A stretch of 55,134 nucleotides of DNA from a virus (Duplodnaviria > Heunggongvirae > Uroviricota > Caudoviricetes). Positions 23,605 through 46,701 of this stretch are shown here, one piece after another. The notes beneath the pieces were generated by a model. That model was given only the letters and a program-made list of their open reading frames with translations. It was not told the origin of the DNA and searched no databases. Where the stretch lies: IMG/VR virus record IMGVR_UViG_2547132035_000002, one strand, 5' to 3'. Every line of letters starts with the position of its first letter. Position 1 is the stretch's first letter. The translations under genes and the position numbers were made by a program.

Positions 23605-23638
23605 TGTGATATACTGATATTAGCTTATACAGCTGGAG
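23605..23638 (+). promoter_or_regulatory. Ntn leader motif A with promoter
   Basis: TGaTATACT then AGC-ttataca-GCT-GGAG. Confidence 0.6.
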
Positions 23639-23646
23639 GGTGTTGT

Positions 23647-24315
23647 ATGTTAGAAATGACAAACAAGAAAGGGGATAGAAGAAACTTTATGTCATATATG
23701 GTTGTTATTAAGAATGTGAATGGAATTGTCATGGCTTCAGATTCATATAGTACATATCCTGATAGAACCCTAAAAGACTCCAATTACAAAAAAATCCACT
23801 GTTTAATACCAAATGTTTTATGCGTTGGAATCACAGGAATCAATCAGGTATATGTAGGGAAAGAATTGGTGGATATTAATGGGACATTATTGGAATATTT
23901 TAGGGCTGTATCAGATAAAAATATTGCTGATATTGTGAAAAAATACTCTGAATTCCTCAAAATTACCTGTGATAGAGAATGCAAGGATATGCGCCTGATG
24001 GTTGCCTACAAAAAGACATTGTATAGAGTAGATATCATTCACCATAAGATTCCATCTATTGAATTTTACAATGATAATGAATTGGATATTATCACTTCTG
24101 GCGAAGAGGAGCATATGATAAATGGCTTAAATAGTTTCACTCGCTCAGATATGTTTAATTCACTTGATATAGTCTTGGAGAAAGGGATTCAGTCTGTGGA
24201 AACTGAAATAAAACTAGAAAAAAACCTTTACTCTCAAGGCTATCTTGCAGTTGGAGGAAAGGTTCAGTATGCAGTGATGGATTATTCAAAATTTAATGAA
24301 AATTGTATCCAATAA
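23647..24315 (+). CDS. proteasome-beta/HslV-like Ntn hydrolase 1 (mature start Ser after Met 23689)
   Basis: S1...GIVMASD17...K33K34I; ITSGEE; C-terminal AVGGKVQY. Confidence 0.7.
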   Translation: MLEMTNKKGDRRNFMSYMVVIKNVNGIVMASDSYSTYPDRTLKDSNYKKIHCLIPNVLCVGITGINQVYVGKELVDINGTLLEYFRAVSDKNIADIVKKYSEFLKITCDRECKDMRLMVAYKKTLYRVDIIHHKIPSIEFYNDNELDIITSGEEEHMINGLNSFTRSDMFNSLDIVLEKGIQSVETEIKLEKNLYSQGYLAVGGKVQYAVMDYSKFNENCIQ

Positions 24316-24673
24316 CGCTTTCGCAAACATCTTTAAGAATTGTTTCTGGTATTTCAGCTATACTAATTAAGTAAATTTTTTGTAATCGTGGATTATAAAT
24401 TCCAAGATTCTGTATAGATTCAAAATAAATTGAGTTATCTGAATGTATTCCCATAAGATAATAAATCAGAATTTGAAGTGTATGGTCTTTGCTTGGATGA
24501 TGAATAGATACTTTAAAATCCCAAAGAGTTGTTTCTGTTAAGAAATCTCCATCGCCAGAATGAATATAATCAGTATAACCATTTTCAAAAGTAAAACCCT
24601 TCAAAACTATAGGACCGATATATCCTCCATAGGGTTGTTTAATCATTTTTATTCTCTTTGTTACTGATACCAT
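24293..24673 (-). CDS. PD-(D/E)xK nuclease-like protein, possibly internally deleted
   Basis: SGDGDFLT...LWDFKVS...HTLQILIYY (D, D-x-K, Q-x-x-x-Y). Confidence 0.55.
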   Translation of the reverse strand: MVSVTKRIKMIKQPYGGYIGPIVLKGFTFENGYTDYIHSGDGDFLTETTLWDFKVSIHHPSKDHTLQILIYYLMGIHSDNSIYFESIQNLGIYNPRLQKIYLISIAEIPETILKDVCESVIGYNFH

Positions 24674-24814
24674 TTTATATTTGCCCTTTAATCTCTTATT
24701 TTAATTGAGTATATATAAATAATTATATGACTTTATTCAACTTTTTTCAACATAACTCAATTAGCAAAAATGAATTGGCTAATAAGTTGGTAAAAACGCG
24801 AAATCCTTTAGTTA

Positions 24815-24885
24815 TGATATAATATAGTAGTAAACTATAACGATTATGGAACTCATATTTTTTTGGGTTCCATTTTTTGTTTTAC
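24815..24885 (+). promoter_or_regulatory. cassette head 14 (RBS without a start codon)
   Basis: TGaTATAAT, GTAAACTATAACGA, stem atggaactca/tgggttccat, TTGTTTTAC, AAGGAGG. Confidence 0.8.
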
Positions 24886-25055
24886 AAAAAAAGGAGGAAA
24901 GTATTATTTTCATAAGAATTATGAGTGTTTATCCAAAAAATTAGAAAAATCTATCAAAAGAGAAAAACTATATATAGGAGGATTTTATATTTCTAGTGTA
25001 GTTTTTTATTTTACAAAAAAGGAGGCGGGCTCCACAAAAAGCTGGAGAAATAATT

Positions 25056-26492
25056 GTGAAGGAAAAACAAAAGAATAAAGATATTATCAAAGAGAATAAA
25101 CTGAAAGCATTAAAAATAAGTCAATGTAGAGAAAAAGCAAAGGAAATTGCTAACCTTACAGACTTTAATTCTATGACAATATATAACCATGTTATTGAAG
25201 TTAACCTAAAAGGTAAAGATGTAGAGTATGAAAGGAATCTTAATCCAAGATATACAAAGCATAAAGATGAAATCTACAAAGATGATAGCCGATATAATCT
25301 TATTTGTAATAAAGCTAATAAGAATTTTTCTAGGCTTATGCAGATTGTCAATAATGCAAATAAAGATTTTATTGGAGACTCACAGTATATAGTCTTTCAT
25401 AAAGCGTTGGTAGAATCGATTCGTTCCTGGTTGGATAGCTTTTTAGCATTTAGCAGTCATTTAAAATATGGAAAGCTTGAAGATGATATTGTGGAATTTA
25501 AAAAGATTTTTCCAAGTATTGATAAAGAGTGGCTAGTTATTGATGGAAATAGCTATTTTTCAACAATTCATCAAATTTATTTGACGGAAAGAAGTATAAA
25601 AAAAGAGTCTGAAACATTAGATGTAAAATACTGGGCAAGGTTCTATGCTCAAAAATCTTCAAAAGGAAAGGGGTATACTAAAGATATTCTTTATCCGTCT
25701 GGCTATGAAAGAGACATTCAGATGCTTCAGCTCTTATCACTGGCATTAGAAAAGAACACATATTCATGGGATAATGAGGATATTAAACTATTCTATCAAA
25801 GATTAAATCGGTTACTGTTTGCAATTGTATGTAAGCAGGGATTCAGTCTTACAGCTAATGATTTATTTGTGACAATGCAAGCCATCAAATATCTTATATT
25901 GCCACATAAAAAGCCTATATTATTTCAGCAGTCAAAGAGAATGGATTTTATGACTTTTGTTTCATTATTTAAAAATGAAAATGAAGACTCTTATTCTCAA
26001 TTACAGGATACAACGTACAATATTAAGATTTTTAGGACTATTATTGAAGGAATTATTACAAAGAATTCTAATCATTTGAATTTGGATTATGTATTAGACT
26101 GTCTTAATGAAGTCTTTAAGGCTATGGTCAACTACCAGAATTTATCTTTAGAGCTTCTAAAAGATACTGAAGGCCAATCTGCAAGAGATAGATTAACTAA
26201 AATTGATACTTTATGTAAACAGAAACTTAGAGAAAATCACACATTAAAAGATGAGATTGTCAATGAGCAACTTCCTGTTTATCTTGTGCGAATTAAGCTA
26301 CATGAATTAGTTTCGATGATGGTGGAGACATACAAGGACTATTTAAGTCATAATATCCAAGTGATGATACAGAAAAATCCTAATCTAATGAAAAATATTC
26401 ATTCAATCTATAATATAGGGAATATCCAACAGCAAATGACAATAGAAGAATTTACAATCATTTTCATGGATAGCATTAAAATCAATAATTAA
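25056..26492 (+). CDS. hypothetical helical protein, 478 aa
   Basis: Long ORF, GGAG RBS 8 nt before GTG. Confidence 0.8.
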   Translation: MKEKQKNKDIIKENKLKALKISQCREKAKEIANLTDFNSMTIYNHVIEVNLKGKDVEYERNLNPRYTKHKDEIYKDDSRYNLICNKANKNFSRLMQIVNNANKDFIGDSQYIVFHKALVESIRSWLDSFLAFSSHLKYGKLEDDIVEFKKIFPSIDKEWLVIDGNSYFSTIHQIYLTERSIKKESETLDVKYWARFYAQKSSKGKGYTKDILYPSGYERDIQMLQLLSLALEKNTYSWDNEDIKLFYQRLNRLLFAIVCKQGFSLTANDLFVTMQAIKYLILPHKKPILFQQSKRMDFMTFVSLFKNENEDSYSQLQDTTYNIKIFRTIIEGIITKNSNHLNLDYVLDCLNEVFKAMVNYQNLSLELLKDTEGQSARDRLTKIDTLCKQKLRENHTLKDEIVNEQLPVYLVRIKLHELVSMMVETYKDYLSHNIQVMIQKNPNLMKNIHSIYNIGNIQQQMTIEEFTIIFMDSIKINN

Positions 26493-26521
26493 AATATTCA
26501 GAAAACAAGGATGGTGATAAA

Positions 26522-27118
26522 ATGTATAGACTAACAGAACAATTAGATTATATAAGAAAGAAAATAAATAAGGACAATTATGCAAATAAAAACTTTGAAG
26601 TTGCCTGTACTTACATAAAGATGATTGAGTTATTGATGAGAGACAAGGAAATTGGAGAAAATAATTATTATGAAATAAGTATGTGCCAGGAAAAAAGTCC
26701 TAATTTAGATGCATATATTATATGTACAACAAAGAAACATAATGATTATGGCATACAAGTTAAGTCTGGAAATATATATGATACAACAGTTAAGGAAAGA
26801 ATCTATTTTTCTCAGGACAAGTATCCAATCAATCCCAATCATTATATACTATTAACTTGGAATAAATTTAAGACATATAACAGCTTTCATTCTTTGGAGG
26901 ATGTCCAGGACGAGAGTATTTTAGATATATTAGATTATATTGAAGACAAAAAGGATAATTATAAGCAGGAATGTTGTTTTCTTTTTGAATGTTTAAACAC
27001 AATTGTGAAATATACGAAATGGCATACAGAAGTGAACTGGATTGTTTTAAGCAGACTTCAATCAGAGTTATTAAATAAAAAAAACTGTGAGAATTATTCT
27101 TATTCATTCGCCTGTTAG
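26522..27118 (+). CDS. hypothetical protein
   Basis: 198 aa, AGGATGGTG RBS. Confidence 0.75.
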   Translation: MYRLTEQLDYIRKKINKDNYANKNFEVACTYIKMIELLMRDKEIGENNYYEISMCQEKSPNLDAYIICTTKKHNDYGIQVKSGNIYDTTVKERIYFSQDKYPINPNHYILLTWNKFKTYNSFHSLEDVQDESILDILDYIEDKKDNYKQECCFLFECLNTIVKYTKWHTEVNWIVLSRLQSELLNKKNCENYSYSFAC

Positions 27119-27134
27119 ATTGTGATGAATATTA

Positions 27135-27195
27135 TGATATAATTGAGATGTAATATATACGAAACAAAGGAATCTGCATTTTTGTAGATTCTTTT
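27135..27195 (+). promoter_or_regulatory. cassette head 15
   Basis: TGaTATAAT, TGTAATATATACGA, stem aaggaatctgca/tgtagattcttt. Confidence 0.85.
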
Positions 27196-27221
27196 CTATG
27201 TCATGAAAAGGAGGAAAACAT

Positions 27222-27869
27222 ATGAAGTATAAAATTGGACAAGAAGTTATGACAGAAAGTGAAGGAAAGGGGACTATAGAGGCCATAGATGATTCTCAGC
27301 AAATTCCTCTCTATTTCGTTTATTTTCCACATCTTAAAAATAGCCCTGCTAAAGGATATAAGGTTTTTAATGAAAGACAGTTAAGACCATATATACCAAA
27401 AAAGGAAATTTATATCACTGTTCAAGATGATGAAGTACAGTCCTTTTTGAAGGAAGATGGTAAGGTTGTAAAATCTGCTACTAATAAATGTCATTTAAAG
27501 GATGAGTTTGATTTTGAAGCTGAGGCTAAGCTGGCTTTTGAGAGATTGTTTAAAGAAGACTTCAAACCTCATCTATTATGGGTTCATTATTTATTTGGAA
27601 TTATTGGGACTCCTACAAAAATGAAAGATAATAGAGGACAACAACTATTTGTTGGTGATATTGTTTTAGTTATTGAAAAAGATAGTGGAATAATAGATAC
27701 AAAAATAGTTTGTGAAAATGATGGTAAACAATTTATTATGGAAATAGATGATGATATTGAAGATGATGGAACGATTAATGGATGGTTTGTTATTAAAGAA
27801 AAATCGTATAAAGATTTATATCACAAAGAACGAGTTTGTAATGTTATTGCTATTTTAAAAGAGGATTAA
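27222..27869 (+). CDS. phage-type hypothetical protein
   Basis: MKYKIGQEV, C...DEFDFEAEAKLAFERL and KDNRG..LFVGDIV modules common in phage accessory proteins. Confidence 0.7.
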   Translation: MKYKIGQEVMTESEGKGTIEAIDDSQQIPLYFVYFPHLKNSPAKGYKVFNERQLRPYIPKKEIYITVQDDEVQSFLKEDGKVVKSATNKCHLKDEFDFEAEAKLAFERLFKEDFKPHLLWVHYLFGIIGTPTKMKDNRGQQLFVGDIVLVIEKDSGIIDTKIVCENDGKQFIMEIDDDIEDDGTINGWFVIKEKSYKDLYHKERVCNVIAILKED

Positions 27870-27951
27870 ATATTATTCAATTTATTTAACTATTCTTTGT
27901 TATTTCAAATCATTTTATTAAATTGGAAGGCATTATAAAACTATCAATATA

Positions 27952-28021
27952 TGATATAATGGAATAGTAAAGTTAAACGAGAAGAATCTGTTTCTAAGAA
28001 GCGGGTTCTTTTTTGTTTTAC
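27952..28021 (+). promoter_or_regulatory. cassette head 16
   Basis: TGaTATAAT, GTAAAGTTAAACGA, stem aagaatctgtttc/gaagcgggttctt, TTGTTTTAC. Confidence 0.85.
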
Positions 28022-28043
28022 ACAAAAGAAGGAGGAAGAATAA

Positions 28044-28442
28044 ATGCTTATTGGTTGGTTAGGGATTATTACAGGTATTATTGTATTAATCATTGGAGTT
28101 GGTTTTGGAATTTTGAATATAAAAGATGGAGAAAAAAGGGTTGGTACAATTTGTATAGTCATAGGAATTCTTTTGAGCATAAGTATCTCTATTGGCAGTG
28201 GTTACTGGCTATATGGAACAGAATCTGGAAAGCGTGCTCAAAAAGATTGGATATCAGAAACTTCTGGTGGTATTGAAAGAGTCGTTACTGTTTATGATAT
28301 CAATGGACAGGTGATTCAAACTTATGAAGGAAAATTTGATATTGAGACAAATGAACAGAATTATATTTTGTTTGAAGATGAAAATGGCGAACGTCATACC
28401 ATCTACTATACAACTGGAACAATTATTGTAGATGAAAAATAA
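28044..28442 (+). CDS. membrane protein, DUF5052-like C-terminus
   Basis: Two TM helices then GGIERVVTVYDING..I.TYEGKFDI. Confidence 0.6.
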   Translation: MLIGWLGIITGIIVLIIGVGFGILNIKDGEKRVGTICIVIGILLSISISIGSGYWLYGTESGKRAQKDWISETSGGIERVVTVYDINGQVIQTYEGKFDIETNEQNYILFEDENGERHTIYYTTGTIIVDEK

Positions 28443-28696
28443 AGAAAAATCATGATGAGCAATATAGACAATCTAAAAATAAATCAGGAAACTATCTCAA
28501 TACTTTTGATGTTATGGTTCTTAAAAAGAATAATAGATGGGTAGCAAGAAAAATATCGATTGAGTATGTTGAAGGTAGCTTATTTGATATAAAATCAATT
28601 GATGATAAACTTCCAATAGAGGAGTACCCATTTAAGGACGTATATAATCACTCTGGTAAGGTATCATTAATAGGATATGTTTATTAAAAATATTGA

Positions 28697-28729
28697 ATTA
28701 TGATAAAATTATGATAAAATTATGATAAA
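28697..28729 (+). repeat. three tandem 11-bp repeats ATTATGATAAA in the TA promoter
   Basis: Exact copies at 28697, 28708 and 28719. Confidence 0.9.
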
Positions 28730-28745
28730 TAAAGGAGTTGATATT

Positions 28746-29012
28746 ATGGAAATAAGACCAATATCAGATTTAAGGAATAAATTTACAGAAATTGAAGATG
28801 TTGTTAAGGAAGGACAGCCAGTATATTTGACTAAAAATGGCTATGGCTCTATGGTTGTCCTGAGCTTAGAAGAATACTCTCGCTTAACAGAGGATATTGA
28901 AGTGAAACTAGACGAAGCTGATAAAATGGCTTCATTAACAAAGAAACGTATATCCCATCAAGAACTTTTTGACAATGTAAGAGAGGGGCTTAAAGGAAAT
29001 AAAGATGAATAA
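28746..29012 (+). CDS. Phd/YefM family antitoxin
   Basis: IRPISDLRN...QPVYLTKNGYGSMVVLSLEEY. Confidence 0.9.
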   Translation: MEIRPISDLRNKFTEIEDVVKEGQPVYLTKNGYGSMVVLSLEEYSRLTEDIEVKLDEADKMASLTKKRISHQELFDNVREGLKGNKDE

Positions 29013-29316
29013 AGATTATGAAATTCATTATCTTCCTCTCTTTCAGGATGATTTAATGAAAACAGTTTATTATATCAGTAATATATTAGAAAATCCTGAT
29101 GCTGCTTTAAAATTAGTTGATGATGTTGAGAAAGTCATTCTAAAAAGAAGTCAAAATCCTCTTAGTTTTGAACCATTTCGTTCAAAACATAAAAGAAAAC
29201 ATTCTTACTATAGAATCTATATTAGAAATTATGTTATTTTTTATGTTGTTATAGGAAATGTAATGGAAGTCAGACGTTTTCTATATAACAAAAGAGATAT
29301 ATCAGAGTATTTATAA
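29005..29316 (+). CDS. RelE/ParE family toxin
   Basis: Overlaps the antitoxin; A.DDL...YI...NPDAA...YRIYIRNYVIFY.V...MEVRRFLY. Confidence 0.85.
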   Translation: MNKDYEIHYLPLFQDDLMKTVYYISNILENPDAALKLVDDVEKVILKRSQNPLSFEPFRSKHKRKHSYYRIYIRNYVIFYVVIGNVMEVRRFLYNKRDISEYL

Positions 29317-29350
29317 AGGATGATAATCTGCGCCATAACAAGTCTAAATA

Positions 29351-29420
29351 TGATATAATGGAATAGTAAAGTTAAACGAGAAGAATCTGTTTCTAAAGAG
29401 CAGATTCTTTTTTGTTTTAC
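29351..29420 (+). promoter_or_regulatory. cassette head 17 (49 bp identical to head 16)
   Basis: 29348-29396 is identical to 27949-27997; the right stem arm differs but still pairs. Confidence 0.9.
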
Positions 29421-29436
29421 AGAAAAGAATTAGAAT

Positions 29437-29943
29437 ATGGAGGTGTATTTAAATTTGGGAATGATTACAATGAATGATACTAGAAATAAAATTGTATTTT
29501 GGGATATTGATGGAACTTTGGCCAGTTACAGGTTTAATAATCATGTAGGGGACCCAAAGGGAAGTGAAAATGGCTATTCTTTAGATGAAGTCGAAGATGG
29601 AATTTTTTTGAAAAGGAATCCCTCTAGATTTATGCAAAAAGTTTTAAATGAATGTCAGGCAAAACAAAACATTATTATGGGGCACTGTTTCAATGAAAAA
29701 GAAAGGAAGGATAAATTTATTTGGTTAGAAAAACATTATCCAAATATGTCAGATATTATACTCACATTTCAAAATAAACCGAAATATTTAACAATTTTAG
29801 AATACTGTAAAGAGAAAAACATTGATTTAAAAAATATTATCTATGTTGATGATGTTTTGAGTTTTTTAAAAGAAGCAGAAAGAAATGGTATATGCAGTTA
29901 TCATATTAGCAGTTTTTTAGATTGGAATTATCAATTTATTTAA
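29437..29943 (+). CDS. HAD superfamily hydrolase
   Basis: IVFWDIDGTL motif I and YVDD motif IV; start uncertain (29437/29461/29470). Confidence 0.8.
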   Translation: MEVYLNLGMITMNDTRNKIVFWDIDGTLASYRFNNHVGDPKGSENGYSLDEVEDGIFLKRNPSRFMQKVLNECQAKQNIIMGHCFNEKERKDKFIWLEKHYPNMSDIILTFQNKPKYLTILEYCKEKNIDLKNIIYVDDVLSFLKEAERNGICSYHISSFLDWNYQFI

Positions 29944-29999
29944 ATGCTTTATAACAGAAGCAGAATTAGCATTTAGCAGATTGTATAATGAAGATTTCA

Positions 30000-30032
30000 T
30001 AAAAACCACTTGGTTAGTACAAGTGGTTTTTT
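30000..30032. terminator. bidirectional terminator between the HAD gene and the integrase
   Basis: aaaaaccactt/aagtggttttt. Confidence 0.8.
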
Positions 30033-30049
30033 CTTTGATTTAGAATTAT

Positions 30050-31033
30050 TCACGACTTTATATTTTGAAATTCACACTCCAAATGGTTAAGTATAGGAAA
30101 GAATTCTTCTTTTGAACTGATATAGATGTGGGCATATGTTTTATATAATTCGTTGACTGAATGACCTAAATGGTCTGCAATGAGATAATCTGGGACATTT
30201 GCATTAATTAACATAGATGCATGAGAATGCCTTAATCCGTGAATTGTGATACTTTTTACATGTGATTTGGAAATATATTTCATGAAATTAACACGTATAG
30301 TAGGGTATTTTAGAAAGCAACTATTTCCAAAAACAAAATTGCTCATTTTAAAGTTTGGATATGTTTCATATGTACAAAAAAGTTCATCCAATAAATTTAT
30401 GCATCCATCTGTTAATTCTATACACCGTTGACTTCTCCATGATTTTGGAGGACTAATTATATATCCTTTCTGTTTAGAAATATATCTCAAGGTTTTATTT
30501 ATATACAGTTTATTGCGACTGAAATCAATATCATTCCATTGCAATGATAATACTTCACCTATTCGCATCCCAGTAAAAAAGAGGATATAGAATAATGAAT
30601 AATATAACAAGTTATCAACAGTAGATAAAAAATTATTAAATTCATTAGAGGTCCAATAATTATTTTTATTCATATGAACTTCATTGGGGTTCTTATATTG
30701 AGGAATAAGAGACAATGGATTTTGTGCAATATACCCCATATTGACTGCAAAATTCATATATGCATTGAAAGTTCCTCTAATAGAGCAGTTTAATGTATTC
30801 GTGCTATAATTTTTATTGTTTCGGGATTTAAGACTGGTCATATCACTCCACCATTGAAGCAGCCTATCTAAGTTGATTGAACTGATAGCTGATGTTCCAA
30901 AATATGGCTGAATATATTGAATATATCTTCTTTTATAAGCAGTTAATGAAGCGAGCTTAAGAGTGTTTTTCATAATGTTTTCATGCTGTATAACAAGTTC
31001 ATCTAATGTTATATAATTTTTCATTAATATCAC
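30050..31033 (-). CDS. tyrosine recombinase (phage/Tn916-type integrase)
   Basis: GMRIGE (R), HGLRHSHAS (HxxR), LGH, YKTY (Y); N-terminal SAM-like domain. Confidence 0.92.
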   Translation of the reverse strand: MILMKNYITLDELVIQHENIMKNTLKLASLTAYKRRYIQYIQPYFGTSAISSINLDRLLQWWSDMTSLKSRNNKNYSTNTLNCSIRGTFNAYMNFAVNMGYIAQNPLSLIPQYKNPNEVHMNKNNYWTSNEFNNFLSTVDNLLYYSLFYILFFTGMRIGEVLSLQWNDIDFSRNKLYINKTLRYISKQKGYIISPPKSWRSQRCIELTDGCINLLDELFCTYETYPNFKMSNFVFGNSCFLKYPTIRVNFMKYISKSHVKSITIHGLRHSHASMLINANVPDYLIADHLGHSVNELYKTYAHIYISSKEEFFPILNHLECEFQNIKS

Positions 31034-31141
31034 CCTTTCATTTATATATGTAGTTACATTTATCAGTATAATGTGATTTATTTTACCATATATTGTCTCA
31101 ATAGGGAATATATTATGAGTGAATTTATAATAGAAAATCTA

Positions 31142-31212
31142 TGGTATAATTGAAATGTAATATTATACGAGAAGAAGGAATCTGCAATTTTGTAGATTCT
31201 TTTTTATTTAAC
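31142..31212 (+). promoter_or_regulatory. cassette head 18, divergent from the integrase
   Basis: TGgTATAAT, TGTAATATTATACGA, stem aaggaatctgcaa/ttgtagattcttt. Confidence 0.85.
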
Positions 31213-31225
31213 AAGGAGGAGAAAA

Positions 31226-31603
31226 ATGGAATTTATCATAAATAAGAAGAATTTTCATAGATTAAAAGAATATGGGTTTAAGTTGCCTGAAGAATGGCTT
31301 GCAAGTGGGGCTTTGGAGGGTACAAATGTAAATGAATATTGCATGATGGATGGCTGTTACTATATATATCTTATGGATGGTGAGAATCCTTCCAAAATTG
31401 CTGTAGAAGATTCAGGGAATCCTCTTTTAGAAGGCTGGGTTGATACAAGACCAGGAGAATATGGCATTTTATGGTTTGATGCAATTCCATATTGTACTTA
31501 TCATGTGGGAATGGATGATTTAGAAATGATGATGGATATTATTTATAGAATGACTAAAGAGGGGATTTTGGAAAGAATTGATATTAAATTGAAATTAATA
31601 TAG
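31226..31603 (+). CDS. hypothetical protein
   Basis: AAGGAGG RBS, 125 aa. Confidence 0.8.
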   Translation: MEFIINKKNFHRLKEYGFKLPEEWLASGALEGTNVNEYCMMDGCYYIYLMDGENPSKIAVEDSGNPLLEGWVDTRPGEYGILWFDAIPYCTYHVGMDDLEMMMDIIYRMTKEGILERIDIKLKLI

Positions 31604-31612
31604 ATAAATAAC

Positions 31613-33533: not shown

Positions 33534-33568
33534 ATGTTATACTTTTATATAGCAGGACATTGCTGGAG
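33534..33568 (+). promoter_or_regulatory. Ntn leader motif B with promoter
   Basis: TGtTATACT then AGCA-ggacat-TGCT-GGAG (33551-33568). Confidence 0.65.
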
Positions 33569-33577
33569 GTATAGGTA

Positions 33578-34231
33578 ATGTATCAGGAATTAGAAAGGAG
33601 ACGAAATTATATGTCTTTTATGGTTGCAATGAAAACAAATAATGGTGTTATAATTGCATCAGATTCTTATAGCACTTATCCAAGCAGAGGGTTGAAAGAT
33701 GGAAACTATAAGAAAATTCATTGTATGAAAGAAAATGAACTATATATTGGAATCGTAGGACTCAATCAAGTAATTAAGATAGAAGATAACAGTCAAGCAG
33801 ATGATATAAATGATATTCTTCCTCATTTCTTTAGTGATATTACATCATTTGAGGAACTGCAGCTACAAATTAATCAATTTGCTTATTATGTAAAACCAAC
33901 TTGTGATAATGAATGTAAAGATATTTCATGTGTATTCATATACAAAAAGATGATGACAAGTTTGGATGTATTACATGGAAAAGGATATTACTTGAAAATA
34001 TGGAATGATAACGAAAGTGACATATTATTTATGGGAGAAGAATACCATAAAATTATTGCAAGAAGTCAGTTTCATCAGGCTGATTTAAATTTATCATTAA
34101 AGGATTCATTAAATAAATGTATACAGACGATTGAAAATGCTATTCATGAAGAAGCAAAGCTTTTTGAAGAGAATAAAAGGGTTGTTGGTGGACCAATTCA
34201 ATATATGATATTGGATTATGGTCACTTATAA
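33578..34231 (+). CDS. proteasome-beta/HslV-like Ntn hydrolase 2 (mature Ser after Met 33611)
   Basis: S1...GVIIASD17...K33K34I; FMGEE; VVGGPIQY; clear paralog of 23647..24315. Confidence 0.7.
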   Translation: MYQELERRRNYMSFMVAMKTNNGVIIASDSYSTYPSRGLKDGNYKKIHCMKENELYIGIVGLNQVIKIEDNSQADDINDILPHFFSDITSFEELQLQINQFAYYVKPTCDNECKDISCVFIYKKMMTSLDVLHGKGYYLKIWNDNESDILFMGEEYHKIIARSQFHQADLNLSLKDSLNKCIQTIENAIHEEAKLFEENKRVVGGPIQYMILDYGHL

Positions 34232-39188: not shown

Positions 39189-39285
39189 AGCAATAGTCAT
39201 ATCATTCATTTCAGTATATTATGATTAGATTTAAAAAAATGAGTCCTTAACATTCCATAAGTTGAGGCAGAAGGGAGATTTATTT

Positions 39286-39777
39286 ATGGAACAAAATCAA
39301 TTAAATAAAGAACTACAAGAAAATACTATTATTACTGAGCAAAAGAATCACCAGTCTAAGAAAACTAAGAAACGTATAGCTATTGTTATGGGGTTTTGTG
39401 TTCTGATTTTATTCTTGGGTTTTGCTTATTGGGGTATTAATCAAACAATAGCAAATGCTTTGACCCAGCAGAAAGTAGAGCCAACTATACCAACTTTTGA
39501 TGATTTCCAGAAAAATTATCAGGATATGAAAAATGAAGTTGAAAAAAGAAATGCTGAATTTTCAGCCACAAAAGCAGAAATAGACACCAGAAGACAAGAA
39601 ATTGAAAATGAGATAGCTAAGCAGAAGGCGTCAACATCTTCTGTACAGCAAAAGTCAAAAGAAATAGAAAAAGAAATTAAAGAAACACAAGAGACTATTC
39701 GCTATGTGCACGATGAGATGAGCAGTGTCTTAGATGAACTGGAAGATTCTGTACAAGAACCAGGACTTAACGAGTAG
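39286..39777 (+). CDS. bitopic membrane protein with long coiled coil
   Basis: One TM (RIAIVMGFCVLILFLGFAYW) followed by heptad-rich region. Confidence 0.75.
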   Translation: MEQNQLNKELQENTIITEQKNHQSKKTKKRIAIVMGFCVLILFLGFAYWGINQTIANALTQQKVEPTIPTFDDFQKNYQDMKNEVEKRNAEFSATKAEIDTRRQEIENEIAKQKASTSSVQQKSKEIEKEIKETQETIRYVHDEMSSVLDELEDSVQEPGLNE

Positions 39778-39845
39778 ATAGTCTTTTCACTATTGAAAGG
39801 TTACAAGTCCTTTCTTTTTTGGAATTATAGAAAGGAGAAAAAACT

Positions 39846-40163
39846 ATGGAGTATAAAATAATTTCATCACAAGGTTATTTCAATTATTCTTCGTATATGA
39901 TGACTTTCTTCATTCAGGTAGGTCATAATATCTATGAATTTTATGAAGCTGAATTATTTCCTGATGAAATGGAAAAAGAATTAACAATTGCCAAAGCTGT
40001 GCCAAAGGGAATGGAAGTCAGTGAGACTCTTTGTGATACAAAAGCTTTTGAAATGATGTATGGAATTATGATTGCAGATGATTTAACGTTTGTAGATAAT
40101 GAAAATGTTCAAATGTATTTAAAACAGAGGTCATTATCAGATGAGTTTATGGAGGAAGAATAA
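39846..40163 (+). CDS. hypothetical protein
   Basis: AAAGGAG RBS, 105 aa. Confidence 0.75.
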   Translation: MEYKIISSQGYFNYSSYMMTFFIQVGHNIYEFYEAELFPDEMEKELTIAKAVPKGMEVSETLCDTKAFEMMYGIMIADDLTFVDNENVQMYLKQRSLSDEFMEEE

Positions 40164-40603
40164 TGAAAGAGAATAATGTAAAGATAATTGATAGTTTTCA
40201 TGGGGAATATGCATTCCTGAGCAATTATTACGATTCACCAATATTTTATGATGGCATACTCTATCCTACTGTTGAGCATGCTTTTCAGGCAGCTAAAACC
40301 ACAGTATTTATTCAGCGTATCATAATAGCAAACAAAAAAACGCCTGGCCAAGCAAAATGTGCAGGCAGAAAGGTTACGCTTAGAGATAACTGGGATGATA
40401 TTAAGTTATATATTATGAAGGAGTTAATTATTCTAAAGTTTACAAACCCAAAACTAAAGTCAGCACTTTTAAATACCAAAGATGCAGAGCTTATAGAGAG
40501 AAATACATGGAATGATACTTATTGGGGTATCTGTAATGGTATTGGAGAGAATCACTTAGGAAAGATTTTAATGGAAGTGAGAGAGATGTTAAGAGGTGAT
40601 TAA
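40163..40603 (+). CDS. NADAR (YbiA-like) family protein
   Basis: FLSNYY, YPTVEHAFQAAK, KF....LK..LL.T, NDTYWG, GENHLGKILMEVRE. Confidence 0.92.
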   Translation: MKENNVKIIDSFHGEYAFLSNYYDSPIFYDGILYPTVEHAFQAAKTTVFIQRIIIANKKTPGQAKCAGRKVTLRDNWDDIKLYIMKELIILKFTNPKLKSALLNTKDAELIERNTWNDTYWGICNGIGENHLGKILMEVREMLRGD

Positions 40604-40721
40604 TATTCTATATGAGAAGCATTAGCTGATAAAGGAACCCTCTACACATACATACAATAATATTTGGTGAATTGGACAAAAGGTGGTAGAATAAGATAGA
40701 TAGAGAAAGGAGTTGATTTTG

Positions 40722-41555
40722 ATGGAAAAATATAATGAATTCAAGTATAAAGTCATATCAGAAACCAAGGATGGAAAAACAAAACAACTATATTGGAATA
40801 TTGCTTTTGGACTCCAAGACGTAGATAATATCAAGCCTTCAGAATATATGTTGCAACTGGCAAAGGAAAATGTTGAAGGCAAGAAAACCTATACAGAAGT
40901 TTATAAACAGATTGATTCTTATTATAAGGAATCAACTCATATAAACTCTGATGAAAGGGAAGCAGATATTGTATCTGCTAGGATTGTTCAAATGTTGAGC
41001 AGTCCAACATTTAGATTTGATTACAATACTTTAAAACTCTATCATAAGCATTTATTCGATGGAGTGGATATTTTAGTTTCTCAGAAATATATTGGAAACT
41101 TCAGAGATTACAATATAACAAAGAGTGAGCCAATATTAGATGGAGATACTGTACTCTATTCAGATTTTTCAATGATTGAGGATACATTAAGATATGATTT
41201 TGAAGAAGAAAAGAATCAGGATTATACAGAAATGTCAAAAGAGGATATCTTAAAAAGATTAGCAACTTTCACTTCTCGAATTTGGCAAGTTCATCCCTTT
41301 GGAGAAGGGAATACAAGAACAACTGCATTGTTTATTCAGAAATATATCACATATCTAGGATTAAAGGATATGAACAATGAATTATTTAAGGATAATTCGA
41401 AGTATTTTAGAAATGCTCTTGTTCGTGCAAACTATATCAATATTCCTAAGAAAATTAATGAGAATGATGAGTATCTTATTAAATTCTTCTCAAATCTTCT
41501 CTATAAAACTGATTACCAGTTAGATAATGCGGACCTTGATATAAAAGAAAAGTAA
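40722..41555 (+). CDS. fic: Fic family protein with N-terminal VbhA-like segment
   Basis: HPFGEGNTRT Fic motif; GNFRDYNITKSEPIL; N-terminal AFGLQDVDNIKPSEY. Confidence 0.88.
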   Translation: MEKYNEFKYKVISETKDGKTKQLYWNIAFGLQDVDNIKPSEYMLQLAKENVEGKKTYTEVYKQIDSYYKESTHINSDEREADIVSARIVQMLSSPTFRFDYNTLKLYHKHLFDGVDILVSQKYIGNFRDYNITKSEPILDGDTVLYSDFSMIEDTLRYDFEEEKNQDYTEMSKEDILKRLATFTSRIWQVHPFGEGNTRTTALFIQKYITYLGLKDMNNELFKDNSKYFRNALVRANYINIPKKINENDEYLIKFFSNLLYKTDYQLDNADLDIKEK

Positions 41556-41619
41556 AGAGAAACAACAGAGATTGCAGCCTTGCAATCTTTTTTGCGTAAT
41601 GCAGAGGAAAGGATACAAT

Positions 41620-41913
41620 ATGTTAACAATTAAAGATTTATTTGAAAAATATGGAGATGTTCCATTAAATGAAGACGTAATGAAATTATTTGGAATCAAT
41701 GAACCAAAAGAGGTAGATTGTATGCTAAGGTTAAAGGATGTACAGAAAATACTTCGCATAAAAACAGCTTCTCAAATTATTAAAAGATTAAAATATAAAT
41801 ATAACTTAAAGTATAAAGAAGCTATTATTCCTGCAACAGTTCTAGCAAAGGAATATGGTTTAGAAACAACAGCTATGCTTCAGTATCTAAAGGAAGAAGA
41901 AAGTATAACTTGA
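41620..41913 (+). CDS. small putative DNA-binding protein
   Basis: AAAGGA RBS; MLRLKDVQKILRIKTASQI resembles an HTH. Confidence 0.55.
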   Translation: MLTIKDLFEKYGDVPLNEDVMKLFGINEPKEVDCMLRLKDVQKILRIKTASQIIKRLKYKYNLKYKEAIIPATVLAKEYGLETTAMLQYLKEEESIT

Positions 41914-41997
41914 TAGAGTAAACCAAGAGTGGGTAGCAGCTTATACTAAAAAATGTTAAAATATTCCTATAAATAAAATGAGAAAGGATAATTAACA

Positions 41998-44028
41998 ATG
42001 GATAATCATAAGCAATATTTATCAGATACCGAAATCATAGAAGTTATAAAATCCTACATTGCTGAGAAATTATATAATTATGCAGTTATGATTGATGGAG
42101 AGTGGGGTAGTGGGAAAACTTATTTTGTGAAGGAAATCTTGATTCCAAAATTAAAAGATTGGGAAAAAGAAAAAAGTAATAATCAAGACGATTATAAACC
42201 CAAAAAAATCATTTATATCTCTTTATATGGAGTGAAAAGGGTAGAAGATATAAGCAAATCCATTTATATGGAGAATTATTTAGACAGTGATAAAAAGAAA
42301 AAAGGGTATTCTTTTGGCTCATCAGCAGTGTCATTAGGGTTTGATATATTAAAAAATAAAGGTATTGATTTAGATAGGGAGGCTATTAAAGACCTGCTTA
42401 GTCAATTTATGTCATTAGAAAGCAGCATTCTTATTTTTGACGACTTGGAGAGATGCAATATACCAGTCAATGAAGTTTTAGGGTATATTAATGGATTTGT
42501 AGAGCATCAAGCTATGAAAGTTATTATTGTTGCGAATCAGAAAGAGTTATTGTTAGGTTTTGATGATAATAATATTGAATTGAAATATATGGTGGTATTA
42601 AATAATAATTTGCAGATTTCTAGTGATGCAGAAAATTCCGATAAAGAATCATTACCAGGTTTTATACAAAAATCTAATGATAATTCTACTCAAAACAATT
42701 GTATATTTAATGAATCTGAGTTAAAGGAACGAGCAGAGAAACTATTTGAACATAAAACAGACTATGAAAGAATGAGAGAGAAATTAATTGGTATATCTAT
42801 CTATTATCAACCTGATTTATATAAAACATTTAAAAATATAATTGAAAATTCTAACATTGATAATGAATTAAAGAAAATTATTAAAGAAAAAACACCTGAT
42901 TATATAGAAATAATTAACCTATTGAGACATTATAATATGAGAACATTTCAGTTTTATCTTTCTAAGATAAACTTCTTATATTCAGAAATAAAAAATTTAG
43001 ATAAAAAGTCAGAGGGGTTTTTAGATTATATGGTTGGATATTGCTTTGAAATTTGTTGTAGATTTAAAAGTGGAGAGATAGATTATAAGTGGGGAAAAGG
43101 ACTGATTAGTTATGAGCATGAACAGGTAACTATTAATTCAACATATCAAAAATTTTCATTCAGAATAAAGTTTGTTGATGATTATGTTATTTATTCTCAT
43201 TATAATCAATCAGTAATTTCAAATATCATAAAAGAGTATAATAGGAATTATGGTAAAAATGTGGCAGAAAGTAGTCAGTTACTGGTTGATATGGATTATG
43301 GATGGTTCTGTTATACCCAAAATAAAGTAGAAGATTCTTTAAATAGAATAAATCAATATCTTCAAGAGGATTTATATAACAAGGATGACTATCATAAAAT
43401 AATACATTTATTTTTAAAAACAGATAATATTGGTATTGACCCAAATTTTTTGGAAACTATGAAAAAACATATGTTAACTAATATAAAAAAATCAAAAAAT
43501 TATTATCGCTTTGATGAAGCTTATGCGTCAATAATCGATAACAAAAATATTAAGATGAGATTTAAAGATATAATTAAAACTTTGCAGAACACGATGGACG
43601 AAACAATCAATAATAATAAAGAAAATGATATACATTACATTATTTCTCATAATGAGGATTGGGCATATAAGATATATAAATTATCTCAAGATAAAAACAG
43701 TGTTTACTATGCACCTTATAGTGTTATTAATATTTTTGAATATGTAGATATTCACTTTTTAGTATCTAAAATTATAGTGTCAACATCCAAAAACTTATTT
43801 GATTTAAGAAGATTTTTTAGTGAATGGAAAGAGGTATATCATGAGTATAATCATGTCTGTCTACTACTTAAATTATATGATATTCTTAGTAGAATTGATA
43901 TTGATAAATTACCGGATGAGTTAAGACCAGATGATTTAATTATTAAAATGCAACTTAACTATCTCATAAATGATTTAAACCATTATGCTGGTATACCTTT
44001 TGAAAAACTAGAATCATTCCAAGAATAA
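41998..44028 (+). CDS. KAP family P-loop NTPase
   Basis: IDGEWGSGKTYF Walker A, ILIFDDLER Walker B, YERMREKLIG. Confidence 0.88.
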   Translation: MDNHKQYLSDTEIIEVIKSYIAEKLYNYAVMIDGEWGSGKTYFVKEILIPKLKDWEKEKSNNQDDYKPKKIIYISLYGVKRVEDISKSIYMENYLDSDKKKKGYSFGSSAVSLGFDILKNKGIDLDREAIKDLLSQFMSLESSILIFDDLERCNIPVNEVLGYINGFVEHQAMKVIIVANQKELLLGFDDNNIELKYMVVLNNNLQISSDAENSDKESLPGFIQKSNDNSTQNNCIFNESELKERAEKLFEHKTDYERMREKLIGISIYYQPDLYKTFKNIIENSNIDNELKKIIKEKTPDYIEIINLLRHYNMRTFQFYLSKINFLYSEIKNLDKKSEGFLDYMVGYCFEICCRFKSGEIDYKWGKGLISYEHEQVTINSTYQKFSFRIKFVDDYVIYSHYNQSVISNIIKEYNRNYGKNVAESSQLLVDMDYGWFCYTQNKVEDSLNRINQYLQEDLYNKDDYHKIIHLFLKTDNIGIDPNFLETMKKHMLTNIKKSKNYYRFDEAYASIIDNKNIKMRFKDIIKTLQNTMDETINNNKENDIHYIISHNEDWAYKIYKLSQDKNSVYYAPYSVINIFEYVDIHFLVSKIIVSTSKNLFDLRRFFSEWKEVYHEYNHVCLLLKLYDILSRIDIDKLPDELRPDDLIIKMQLNYLINDLNHYAGIPFEKLESFQE

Positions 44029-44034
44029 ACTATG

Positions 44035-44065
44035 ATATACTTTAATAAGTGATAACTCACTGGAG
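44035..44065 (+). promoter_or_regulatory. Ntn leader motif C with promoter
   Basis: TGaTATACT then AGTG-ataact-CACT-GGAG (44048-44065). Confidence 0.65.
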
Positions 44066-44072
44066 GGATAGA

Positions 44073-44765
44073 TTGACTGTTTTCAATTCAATAGGAGACT
44101 ATGCAATTCAAGGAATAACCTTTGGAGATTCCACAAAAATGCTCATGAAAGGAACTATTATGACAAGAGTATGTGCAGCAGCAAATGATAATATCTTGTG
44201 TGTTGGTAGTGATACTTTATATATACACGATAAGACGAGAGCCTCATCATGTTATGGAAAGAAGGTTTTTTCAAACAATAATATTATTGTGGCAGTATTA
44301 GGCACTTTGGATTTACAGAGCAGTATAGGAGATTTTCATATTCAGAAAGTTGTTGAAAAATGCTTAAAAATGAATTCTGATTTTTTAAGTCTTATAGATT
44401 CATTAAAAAAAGAAGTAGGGCAGATTTATTGTCATAATTTCTTTCATTATTTTACACAGTTTGCTGTTTTTGGCTTAGTTAACGAAAAGTTCTATATATA
44501 TTATTTTCAGATATCATCTGGGTTGAATTCATATGAATGTTCTTCTCCTTTTGGAAATATTTATGATGCAAATAAAGAAAACTTTAAATTCAATCATCAT
44601 ATGCTGACATTAGGTCAAGGTGTTTATAATAACTATGCAATTATTCAGGGCCATTATGAGAATCCAGTTGATGAAGTGAAATGCAATATTCATTCAGCCA
44701 TCTCTGATAAAGAACTTCAAACTGTTGGAGGTAAATGCCAATATCAAGTTATTAGTAGGCGATAA
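44073..44765 (+). CDS. Ntn hydrolase 3 (mature Thr after Met 44160)
   Basis: T1...ILCVGSD17...K33K34VF; TLGQG; QTVGGKCQY. Confidence 0.65.
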   Translation: MTVFNSIGDYAIQGITFGDSTKMLMKGTIMTRVCAAANDNILCVGSDTLYIHDKTRASSCYGKKVFSNNNIIVAVLGTLDLQSSIGDFHIQKVVEKCLKMNSDFLSLIDSLKKEVGQIYCHNFFHYFTQFAVFGLVNEKFYIYYFQISSGLNSYECSSPFGNIYDANKENFKFNHHMLTLGQGVYNNYAIIQGHYENPVDEVKCNIHSAISDKELQTVGGKCQYQVISRR

Positions 44766-44802
44766 TAATACAAATATAAAAATGTGATTTATAATATGAC
44801 AT

Positions 44803-44826
44803 ATAGCAGTCAACTGCTGGAGATGA
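44803..44826 (+). repeat. Ntn leader motif D, 24-bp direct repeat copy 1
   Basis: ATAGCAGTCAACTGCTGGAGATGA. Confidence 0.9.
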
Positions 44827-44831
44827 GAAAA

Positions 44832-45557
44832 GTGGAACCATTTTTAGACTGGAGTCAACTTATTTTTAGGAAGGAAAAAACAATGACAAGAGTAACGTCA
44901 GCAGCAAATGATGAAATTTTAGTTGTATCCGCAGATTCATTACTGACTAATAATATAACAAATAACAAAACATATAAGAAAAAAATTCTACACAACAAGA
45001 AAATAATTATTGCATTACTTGGACAAATAGAATTGATAACCTCTAATGGAATTATTGAATTTGATAAAGTTATAGAGAATATCATAAAACAGGAAATTAA
45101 TCCATATCTTGTAGAAAATCAAATAATTCAAACAGTAGAAAAATATTTTTCAAAATACTATAATAAAAACTTTTTACAAGTTTGTTTATTCTGGAGAGAG
45201 AATCAGCACTTTTTGCTACGTGCCTTTCAATTGAATGGAGATTATAAAATTATGCCTTTTTTAAATTATGCTTTTGGATATGATTATAAAACAAAAGATA
45301 ATGTTATTAAGGTTATGAATCATTATTATTTTGATACAGGAGAAGGAGCAGGAAATCATTTGTTAGGTTTTCTTAACACAAATCCTCTAGACTTCTCTAT
45401 ACAAACTGTTAGAAATGCTATAAATAATACTGACTTTCAAACAGTAGGAGGAGATGTTTTTACTGTCACACTCGATAAACATGGAATTATAGAAACATAT
45501 GTAAATGGAAGAAAAAACTCTTTTAATAGCAGTCAACTGCTGGAGATGATAAAGTGA
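44832..45557 (+). CDS. Ntn hydrolase 4 (mature Thr after Met 44883)
   Basis: T1...ILVVSAD17...K33I; DTGEG; QTVGGDVF. Confidence 0.65.
   Translation: MEPFLDWSQLIFRKEKTMTRVTSAANDEILVVSADSLLTNNITNNKTYKKKILHNKKIIIALLGQIELITSNGIIEFDKVIENIIKQEINPYLVENQIIQTVEKYFSKYYNKNFLQVCLFWRENQHFLLRAFQLNGDYKIMPFLNYAFGYDYKTKDNVIKVMNHYYFDTGEGAGNHLLGFLNTNPLDFSIQTVRNAINNTDFQTVGGDVFTVTLDKHGIIETYVNGRKNSFNSSQLLEMIK
45526..45549 (+). repeat. Ntn leader motif E, 24-bp direct repeat copy 2
   Basis: Identical to 44803-44826. Confidence 0.9.
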
Positions 45558-46252
45558 AAAGCAATTTAAATAACCTCAGTATACAGAAAGAAGTGAATAG
45601 AATGTCGAGAATTATGGCAGCAGCAAGGAATGACGTACTGGTTGTTGGTGCAGATACACAATTAACAAATTCATATAATCATACAAAACAATTTGATAGC
45701 AAGAAGATTTTCTATGACAAGAATATTGTTATTTGTATATTGGGAACGATAGAGATATTGACATCTGGCGGTAATATCATGTTAACGGATTATATTTTGG
45801 ATGCTATAAATGAGTATAAGACTAATGATATTTTCAGTGTTACAGAGAATCTTCTAAAGAAAATCGAGGAAGTATATGCAAAGTTAAGATTAACTGATAG
45901 CAATACAGATATTTTAATATTTTGGCAAGAAGAAGGATATTTTTATCTTAATACAGTAGAAGTGAATTTTAGGGGAAGACATTATCCATTTGGAAAAGTT
46001 ATGCAAGCAAATAAACATCTGTATATATTTAATAATCATTTTTTACAAACTGGAGAAGGTATTAAAAATCCAGATATTATAGTCAGTGAAATATATAATA
46101 TTGAACCAATAGATTTTGTGACAGCAGGAATACAGAGCGCTATTCATGATGAAACTCTAACTACTATAGGCGGTAGTGTCTATTCAGTTAAAATGGACAA
46201 AGAGGGAGAAGTAAAAATGCATGTTAATGGAATTTCAGAAGATAGTTTATAA
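45554..46252 (+). CDS. Ntn hydrolase 5 (mature Ser after Met 45602)
   Basis: S1...VLVVGAD17...K33K34IF; QTGEG; TTIGGSVY. Confidence 0.65.
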   Translation: MKSNLNNLSIQKEVNRMSRIMAAARNDVLVVGADTQLTNSYNHTKQFDSKKIFYDKNIVICILGTIEILTSGGNIMLTDYILDAINEYKTNDIFSVTENLLKKIEEVYAKLRLTDSNTDILIFWQEEGYFYLNTVEVNFRGRHYPFGKVMQANKHLYIFNNHFLQTGEGIKNPDIIVSEIYNIEPIDFVTAGIQSAIHDETLTTIGGSVYSVKMDKEGEVKMHVNGISEDSL

Positions 46253-46296
46253 AATATTAATACATTAGTTATTGATTCACATGAAAGGAGAGCAAT

Positions 46297-46653
46297 ATGA
46301 ATTTGGAAGATATTTTAGAGGATTATGATGTAGAATTTAGTGGAACTATTAAGTTTGTGAAAAAGCAGGATAAAATTGCTTTGCAGATTGAATCACTGAG
46401 AATAGAGGATAAAGTAGATGCATTTAAAAAACTCGAGATGCTTACTCAAGAGGAGGTTGCTACTCTTTTAAAGACCTCAAGACAAAATATTTCAATGCTT
46501 AGGGAGGTTGGTATACTTAAAGCAATTAAAGTTGGGCAAAGGTATTTATTTTCTATTGAGGAGTTACAGGAATTTCAACTGAAGTATAAGGGGTATGATG
46601 TGGGCAATAGAGTAAAAGCAACGGAAGCTTATAGAATTGTTGAGGGGAAATGA
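46297..46653 (+). CDS. excisionase-like HTH protein
   Basis: MLTQEEVATLLKTSRQNISMLREVGILKAIKVGQRYLFS. Confidence 0.75.
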   Translation: MNLEDILEDYDVEFSGTIKFVKKQDKIALQIESLRIEDKVDAFKKLEMLTQEEVATLLKTSRQNISMLREVGILKAIKVGQRYLFSIEELQEFQLKYKGYDVGNRVKATEAYRIVEGK

Positions 46654-46683
46654 TTTTCATATATAATATTATAATATATGTAT

Positions 46684-46701
46684 AGCAGTTGTCTGCTGGA
46701 G
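46684..46701 (+). promoter_or_regulatory. Ntn leader motif F
   Basis: AGCAG-ttgt-CTGCT-GGAG after TATAAT. Confidence 0.7.

Follow-up and report, generated by a model that had tools for sequence, protein, structure and literature searches.

Paired in-frame start signals and a co-varying leader hairpin in genes for proteasome-like proteins on a mobile element of gut Bacillota

The 55,134-nucleotide (nt) IMG/VR virus record IMGVR_UViG_2547132035_000002, analysed here over its whole length and referred to as the window, has a GC content of ~29%, carries nearly all of its genes on the + strand and belongs to a mobile element of a low-GC gut bacterium (Bacillota). Six paralogous genes of this element, P1 to P6, share a leader design in which two translation start signals are set in one frame: an outer start codon (START1) with its Shine-Dalgarno sequence (SD1), and an inner start codon (START2), with a second Shine-Dalgarno sequence (SD2), directly before the putative catalytic Ser or Thr. 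At all six sites a short inverted repeat ending in CT runs without a gap into GGAG. An earlier note, made from the letters of the window alone, had described a stem-loop followed by GGAG before each of six paralogs; all six were recovered at the positions it gave, with stems slightly longer than first written, at 4 bp in P1 and 5 bp in P2 to P6, that of P2 including one G.U pair.

Annotation of the six proteins by standard profiles was largely silent. The Pfam Proteasome model (PF00227) gave scores of 18.8 bits for P1 and 22.0 bits for P2, not reaching the gathering cut-off of 22.4, and Pfam returned no match for P3 to P6. Searches of NCBIfam, PADLOC and PHROGs gave no matches for any of the six, and in the protein atlas they fell into unnamed clusters only, one of them with 19% PF00227. 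An AlphaFold2 model of the 241-residue long form of P4 (from GTG 44832), computed with a 77-sequence alignment as input, adopted a proteasome beta fold with a predicted local distance difference test score of 89.7, low confidence being confined to the N-terminal extension. When this model was submitted to Foldseek, all of the best 50 matches listed were 20S proteasome subunits (probability 1.0, E ~1e-6, template modelling score ~0.5). Alignment placed Ser/Thr1, Asp17 and Lys33 of P1 to P5 in register, numbered from the residue following the inner Met, and across 77 family sequences the Lys is invariant and the Asp nearly so; P6 has Ser1, Glu17 replacing Asp17, and a shifted Lys. Given the fold model, the Foldseek matches and the catalytic residues in register, P1 to P6 are, on modelled structure, proteasome-beta-fold N-terminal nucleophile (Ntn) hydrolases of an uncharacterised and uncurated Bacillota family. 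Ntn enzymes require a free N-terminal nucleophile. The earlier note had counted only five of the genes as intact, which does not hold for P6: this gene is no wreck, having an ATG at 46716, a 27-codon extension and a GTG directly before Ser, and its product is a member of a conserved subfamily with P0014 and P0027.

The promoter boxes, leaders, extensions and mature domains of the six genes are as follows.

23607..23615, +: P1 extended -10 box TGATATACT, 6 nt upstream of the hairpin
23622..23639, +: P1 leader, hairpin 23622-23634 (AGCT-tatac-AGCT, 5-nt loop), then GGAGG (SD1)
23647..23688, +: P1 outer start ATG and 14-codon extension, SD2 GAAAGGGGA at ~23667-23675
23689..24315, +: P1 inner start ATG, Ser1, mature domain with Asp17 and Lys33
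33535..33543, +: P2 extended -10 box TGTTATACT, 7 nt upstream of the hairpin
33551..33569, +: P2 leader, hairpin 33551-33564 (AGCAG-gaca-TTGCT, with the G.U pair), then GGAGG
33578..33610, +: P2 outer start ATG and 11-codon extension, SD2 AGAAAGGAGA at 33592-33601
33611..34231, +: P2 inner start ATG, Ser1, mature domain
44033..44041, +: P3 extended -10 box TGATATACT, immediately downstream of a KAP NTPase stop codon
44048..44067, +: P3 leader, hairpin 44048-44061 (AGTGA-taac-TCACT), then GGAGGG
44073..44159, +: P3 outer start TTG and 29-codon extension, SD2 GAAAGGAA at 44147-44154
44160..44765, +: P3 inner start ATG, Thr1, mature domain
44805..44826, +: P4 leader, hairpin 44805-44818 (AGCAG-tcaa-CTGCT), then GGAGATGA
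44832..44882, +: P4 outer start GTG and 17-codon extension with conserved Trp, SD2 AGGAAGGA at 44868-44875
44883..45557, +: P4 inner start ATG, Thr1, mature domain
45528..45549, +: P5 leader, hairpin 45528-45541, same as P4, with GGAGATGA, within the 3' end of the P4 coding sequence
45554..45601, +: P5 outer start GTG and 16-codon extension, the GTG overlapping the P4 stop codon (GTGA)
45602..46252, +: P5 inner start ATG, Ser1, mature domain
46684..46705, +: P6 leader, hairpin 46684-46697 (AGCAG-ttgt-CTGCT), then GGAGATGA
46716..46796, +: P6 outer start ATG, 14 nt after GGAG, and 27-codon extension, SD2 AGGAAGGA at 46778-46785
46797..47471, +: P6 inner start GTG, Ser1, mature domain with Glu for Asp17

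A word-based search for relatives returned only close ones, from assembled read sets, and a full HMMER profile search returned 110 family proteins. Alignment-based searches found five loci in metagenome contigs, mostly close orthologues, and no relatives in viral contigs or in genome contigs; tblastn of P4 against phage and plasmid collections gave no match. DNA was read for ~30 family genes on unrelated contigs. The statistics on the Shine-Dalgarno sequence of the inner start cover 29 genes, and the residue preceding the catalytic Ser/Thr (position -1) was counted over 114 sequences aligned to the profile.

Position -1 is Met in all but 6 of these 114 sequences, with Gly found only in P0080 and P0086. 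In every one of the 29 genes with DNA the corresponding codon is a start codon, ATG in 27 of them, GTG in P6 and TTG in a gene of homologue locus L061. The predicted duplex of SD2 with the anti-Shine-Dalgarno sequence has a mean energy of -10.7 kcal/mol over the 29 genes, while 133 further ATGs lying in frame in these genes average -3.5 kcal/mol (p = 3e-16, Mann-Whitney); SD2 reaches the strength of an ordinary gene's Shine-Dalgarno sequence in all 29. The inner ribosome-binding site of P1, which the earlier note had called weak, is indeed the weakest of the six. Across genes the GG core of SD2 lies in all three codon phases (13, 10 and 6 genes) and encodes Glu-Gly-Glu, Arg-Arg or Lys-Glu-Asp depending on the subfamily; selection therefore appears to act on an RNA signal and not on a peptide motif. 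The inner start can also stand by itself. In L008 an in-frame TAG lies 9 codons upstream with no start codon in between, and L009, which like L008 lacks the hairpin, has only a promoter, a Shine-Dalgarno sequence and the inner ATG, so that in both the inner Met is the only possible start.

The outer start, too, is kept in frame in the window. The GGAG-to-start gaps of P1 to P5 are 8, 9, 7, 9 and 8 nt, within the 7-9 nt first reported, and counting codons again gave the same extensions of 14, 11, 29, 17 and 16 residues. From base composition, the chance of an in-frame, stop-free extension in all five genes is estimated at ~3e-6. Over the family START1 is in frame, and the frame open, in ~25 of 26 genes with extensions of 11-111 codons, and about half of the family gene calls carry an in-frame extension of at least 25 residues (the longest 118). 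A frequently broken upstream frame in homologues was the observation that the earlier note would have counted against two starts; the break was found in one gene of ~26, that of L008, the sole case of a recognisable upstream SD-start pair that is out of frame. There, at L008:2400-2530, a hairpin-less GGAGG-ATG opens an upstream open reading frame (ORF) of ~30 codons that overlaps the inner start.

The extension itself bears marks of constraint. Between close orthologues of P1 and P2 it has accumulated 5 synonymous changes and 1 non-synonymous change (4 and 1 among P1 orthologues alone), and in moderately diverged pairs its identity of 54-64% is set against 40-57% for the catalytic domain. Of 19 T-type proteins with an extension, 10 have a Trp between -9 and -14; the mature domains of these proteins contain 0.6% Trp. 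Because the frame is kept, synonymous changes are in excess, identity is at least that of the catalytic domain and the Trp is conserved, the extension is probably under selection and the long product is probably made.

Within the window, a strict pattern search for the hairpin leader found P2, P4, P5 and P6, a count that no shuffled sequence matched, and a stem-finder additionally picked up P1 and P3. Every hairpin is retained in the minimum-free-energy structure that RNAfold gives for the full leader; these full-leader folds contained no alternative pairing of hairpin with SD2 that was conserved across the paralogues. CTGGAG occurs 20 times in the window, where ~10 copies are expected, and only six of the 20 have both a hairpin and a start codon in range, the others being intragenic or without hairpin. 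SD1 (GGAGG or GGAGAUGA) lies directly 3' of the stem with duplex energies of -8.5 to -11.8 kcal/mol, and the GGAGATGA of P4 is the extended Shine-Dalgarno sequence GGAGGUGA with one mismatch. An extended -10 box (TGnTATACT) precedes the hairpins of P1, P2 and P3 by 6-7 nt, a distance of 6-8 nt when copies in L010 and L011 are counted too, which would put the hairpin right at the 5' terminus of the mRNA. The P5 leader has no promoter of its own. A consensus promoter scan of 43900-47700 gave 34 hits against 26 in shuffles, not above background, and is thus uninformative in this AT-rich DNA. Rfam, at gathering threshold, gave no match over the whole window. An intrinsic terminator was rejected for the hairpin, which has no T-run, as was an attC-like or IS200-type DNA hairpin, the stems being too short and always fused to a Shine-Dalgarno sequence on the sense strand; nothing was found in support of T4 RegB-type cleavage at GGAG.

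The same leader design precedes distant homologues in L010 (three genes), L011 (four), L062 (two) and L064, and a variant of it is present in L061. It consists of 5'-AG, a variable stem, a loop of 3-7 nt and CU-3', followed by GGAG(AUGA), GGAGG or AGAGGUG. Among closer relatives, the P1 leader is kept in L002 and L004, with a different loop in L004, and the P2 orthologue in L001 keeps the stem with a changed loop. The covariation of the stems was assessed over 14 distinct leaders from 7 contigs, giving 70 pair cells. All 70 cells are paired, 4 of them as G.U, and compensatory changes occur at three of five stem pairs (C:G to U:A; A:U to G:C; G:C to A:U or U:A), bearing out the earlier remark that the stems co-vary. 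The covariation score was reached by none of 500 shuffles, and slid registers were 6-56% paired. Because of the compensatory changes and the G.U pairs, the element is read as an RNA structure on the sense strand and not as a DNA palindrome recognised by a protein.

Over 153 kb (the window together with the homologue loci) all but five of the hairpin sites precede a family gene, and these five lie within coding sequence that is unrelated. Two family members overlooked by the first profile came to light through their hairpins, and a broader profile confirmed both (5e-18 and 9e-33). A scan for the exact motif (AGCAG-N4-CTGCTGGAGATGA) gave 44 matches in genome contigs and 3 in viral contigs, all of them chance occurrences in GC-rich coding DNA without a family gene downstream, and says nothing on the specificity of the motif. 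Since other genes of the element use a different leader, the hairpin is family-specific over the loci examined. Both signals, both frames, the covariation and this restriction to the family are features of the DNA itself.

Dual initiation is the explanation towards which we lean, on sequence evidence: each gene would make a long form whose N-terminus is blocked and a short one whose catalytic N-terminus is free. From SD1 and START1, ribosomes would produce a protein whose extension of 11-111 residues blocks the alpha-amino group of the catalytic Ser/Thr, so that the long form would be inactive or a pro-form. From SD2 and START2 (ATG, GTG or TTG), directly before the Ser/Thr, they would produce a Met-Ser/Thr protein, from which methionine aminopeptidase would remove the Met and expose the nucleophile, as in HslV, whose catalytic N-terminus is exposed by removal of Met. 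In a large subset of genes, all six of the window among them, SD1 comes fused to a 4-6 bp RNA hairpin (5'-AG...CU-3'), and in promoter-proximal copies, where this begins 6-8 nt after the -10 box, it would sit at or beside the 5' end of the transcript. The hairpin most likely would protect the 5' end and fix the presentation of SD1, thereby setting the ratio of long to short form, with both starts firing in vivo. In Bacillus subtilis, mRNAs are stabilised by occlusion of the 5' end combined with a strong Shine-Dalgarno sequence, and RppH requires 5' nucleotides that are unpaired, favouring G as the second of them (PMC3997798).

A number of observations weigh against this reading. The hairpins are weak, at -1.5 to -5.2 kcal/mol by RNAfold, and the copy of P5 and copies in L064 and L010 lie between cistrons and not at a 5' end. 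Hairpin-less genes, in L063 and three in L064, have both SD-start pairs, and the hairpin is therefore best regarded as an add-on to a two-start design and not its basis. The earlier note had proposed dual initiation with the hairpin tuning the ratio; comparative evidence backs the two in-frame starts, and these hairpin-less genes deny the hairpin a founding role. For the GGAG of L011 at 1489 there is no canonical start at a workable spacing. The argument from codon -1 is soft because GTG and TTG are one step from ATG and encode conservative residues, and the purine-rich segment before the Met may instead encode a charged linker of the kind typical for AT-rich genomes. Ribosomes elongating from START1 would in addition tend to occlude START2.

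If only the outer start were used, the extension would be a propeptide cleaved autocatalytically between Met(-1) and Ser/Thr1, with the Met and the purine stretch serving as cleavage motif or linker. The extension is conserved as a peptide with frequent Trp and, in many members, an aromatic residue at -2; proteasome beta propeptides provide an established precedent (PMC8665760), and in P1 it is SD1 that is the stronger or better-spaced signal. This explanation is nevertheless considered unlikely. Proteasome-type autolysis uses a Gly at -1, seen here only in two secreted-looking homologues, and extension-less homologues start at the inner Met. SD2 matches a normal gene's in 29 of 29 genes, and its core shifts through all three codon phases, with different peptides encoded. 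The converse, in which the inner start alone makes working enzyme, would turn hairpin, SD1 and START1 into a leader of aprE or STAB-SD type that stabilises the mRNA and loads ribosomes, with the long form a tolerated by-product. The 5' protection known from B. subtilis speaks for it too. The hairpins begin with AG, and this second-position G, if unpaired, would make the 5' end a better target for RppH (PMC3997798); the L008 gene looks intact although its upstream GGAGG-ATG ORF is out of frame. A by-product would, however, hardly call for a frame kept in ~25 of 26 genes despite large changes in length, or for an extension with a conserved Trp, an excess of synonymous over non-synonymous changes (5:1) and an identity as high as that of the catalytic domain. 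The hairpin, moreover, was seen only with this family in the loci examined and not with the many other genes of the elements, and on these grounds the inner start alone appears distinctly improbable.

That the inverted repeat acts as DNA, either as a repressor operator overlapping +1 or as a recombination joint for growth and shrinkage of the paralogue array, is the least credible alternative and very improbable. An exact 24-bp repeat brackets P4 between proteins of ~30% identity, and an HTH_17 protein is encoded inside the array. Compensatory stem substitutions would not be tolerable to a protein that reads sequence, though, and the G.U cells (4 of 70) are mismatches in DNA and non-pairs on the other strand. 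The zero-nt junction with the Shine-Dalgarno sequence is fixed on the sense strand in every copy, and the stems are far shorter than known folded-DNA recombination sites. Each of the three alternatives leaves at least one conserved feature unexplained.

As a speculation to which we give a slim chance, the two starts could also serve as a safety switch on a toxic protease, encoded in an island for defence or competition beside the KAP NTPase gene. At rest the hairpin-protected SD1 would direct synthesis of the blocked long form, whose Trp-bearing propeptide would cap or poison the ring, and a trigger would shift initiation to START2 and active enzyme. Cleavage or melting of the leader, a change in ribosome state and phage takeover are possible triggers.

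Two in-frame starts on one mRNA that give a functional and an N-terminally longer form are likewise found in lambda S105/S107 and phage 21 S68/S71 (PMC9636201). The lambda starts are separated by 2 codons and use a common Shine-Dalgarno region, whereas those of this family are 11-111 codons apart and each has its own. An RNA stem-loop beside the lambda initiation region reportedly influences the partition between the two starts, according to Blasi et al. The lambda products differ in membrane topology, those considered here would differ by a blocked catalytic N-terminus, and an antagonistic long form is hypothetical here. ClpB, IF2 and others in a retapamulin ribosome-profiling survey (bioRxiv 10.1101/520783) also have two N-terminal proteoforms from an internal Shine-Dalgarno sequence and start. 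Unlike those known internal starts, the internal start here is exactly at the catalytic residue, and the choice of start would therefore decide whether the enzyme is born active.

Proteasome beta subunits and HslV have the same fold and Thr/Ser1-Asp17-Lys33 geometry and need a free N-terminal nucleophile. HslV exposes it by removal of Met and the beta subunits by removal of a propeptide; this family appears to encode both routes in each gene, with Met at -1 where proteasome beta has Gly. Among proteasome-like families, propeptides are found only in proteasome beta and HslV (Fuchs et al. 2021, PMC8665760), and as propeptides are limited to these two, a conserved extension is new for this branch. 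The Firmicute clusters FC1-FC5 of Fuchs, Alva and Lupas (2021, PMC8665760), to which the P1 to P6 family may belong, are likewise uncharacterised, Firmicute-restricted, distant proteasome homologues that need sensitive searches; the paper gives no leaders, dual starts or extensions for them, and the comparison is by description only. The B. subtilis stabilisers (the aprE leader stem-loop, the cryIIIA STAB-SD, ermC and hbs) set a 5'-terminal stem-loop and a strong Shine-Dalgarno sequence against RppH and RNase J1 (PMC3997798, PMC5737220). They are neither family-specific nor tied to a second in-frame start, and some of the hairpins described here are intercistronic.

In-frame internal starts in bacteria (bioRxiv 10.1101/520783) and regulation by dual starts in lambda S (PMC9636201) are already known. 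New, as far as searches show, is that an internal start shared across the family lies exactly at the catalytic N-terminal residue of an Ntn enzyme, often together with a co-varying leader hairpin; this link was not found described for Ntn hydrolases. The two-start signal is not a quirk of one locus, because it is conserved family-wide down to 15-30% protein identity. If dual initiation is true, translation alone would decide if the protease starts out active or blocked. For this uncharacterised branch of the proteasome superfamily, carried on mobile elements in gut Bacillota, the two-start signal provides a model that can be tested directly. The compact co-varying RNA motif marks family members, including the two missed by the first sequence profile. 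For annotation some caution is advised, as gene callers place the start inconsistently at the outer or the inner site; 13 of the family gene calls begin directly at Met-Ser/Thr.

The surroundings of the six genes contain the following further features.

41998..44028, +: KAP-family P-loop NTPase gene (Pfam KAP_NTPase; PADLOC PDC-S49, E = 3e-53; PHROG 4740)
46297-46653: HTH_17 gene (Pfam HTH_17), within the P3-P6 array region
47627-48493: SH3-domain gene, after the P3-P6 array
1449, 3393, 6658, 7628, 13643, 16474, 19578, 20177, 24815, 27135, 27952, 29351, 31142 and 34283, +: -10 boxes of the leader type used by other genes

The KAP NTPase gene, whose PADLOC match PDC-S49 is a candidate defence system, lies directly upstream of the P3-P6 array with no terminator in between. 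Within the array the exact 24-bp leader repeat occupies 44803-44826 and 45526-45549, on either side of P4, and its second copy codes for the C-terminus of P4 (SSQLLEM). As the repeat is exact and the flanking proteins are ~30% identical, a recent conversion or duplication of the leader is suggested.

At least 14 other genes of the window share the different leader, composed of TGnTAtAAT, a (G)TAA..T.A.ACGA box 6-7 nt further on, a terminator-like hairpin with T-run, and a ribosome-binding site. From its sequence, this set looks like a promoter-proximal-terminator (antitermination-type) regulon. An ACGA box and terminator hairpin without a -10 box of their own lie directly upstream of the P1 promoter (23545-23606), where the P1 -10 box directly follows the terminator-like hairpin 23571-23595 and its T-run. 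A decayed copy of ACGA box and terminator lies upstream of P2 (33470-33530) and is intact in the L001 orthologue. The promoters of these two Ntn genes therefore stand just behind a terminator of the general type.

Several homologues depart from the common arrangement. P0080 and P0086, the distant members with Gly and not Met at -1, have hydrophobic, signal-peptide-like N-termini; their sequences suggest the classical propeptide type and point to a secreted branch of the family. A P1-like copy at L001:3330-4000 keeps its hairpin leader and extension intact and shifts frame ahead of the mature domain, making it an apparent pseudogene or assembly error. At L005:700-760 unrelated GC-rich DNA is joined to the middle of the P1 extension, and this contig is probably a chimeric assembly. 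In L061 an AAA+ protein with a Clp_N domain (6469-7749) is encoded a few kb from two family members and could conceivably be an unfoldase partner of a proteasome-like protease.

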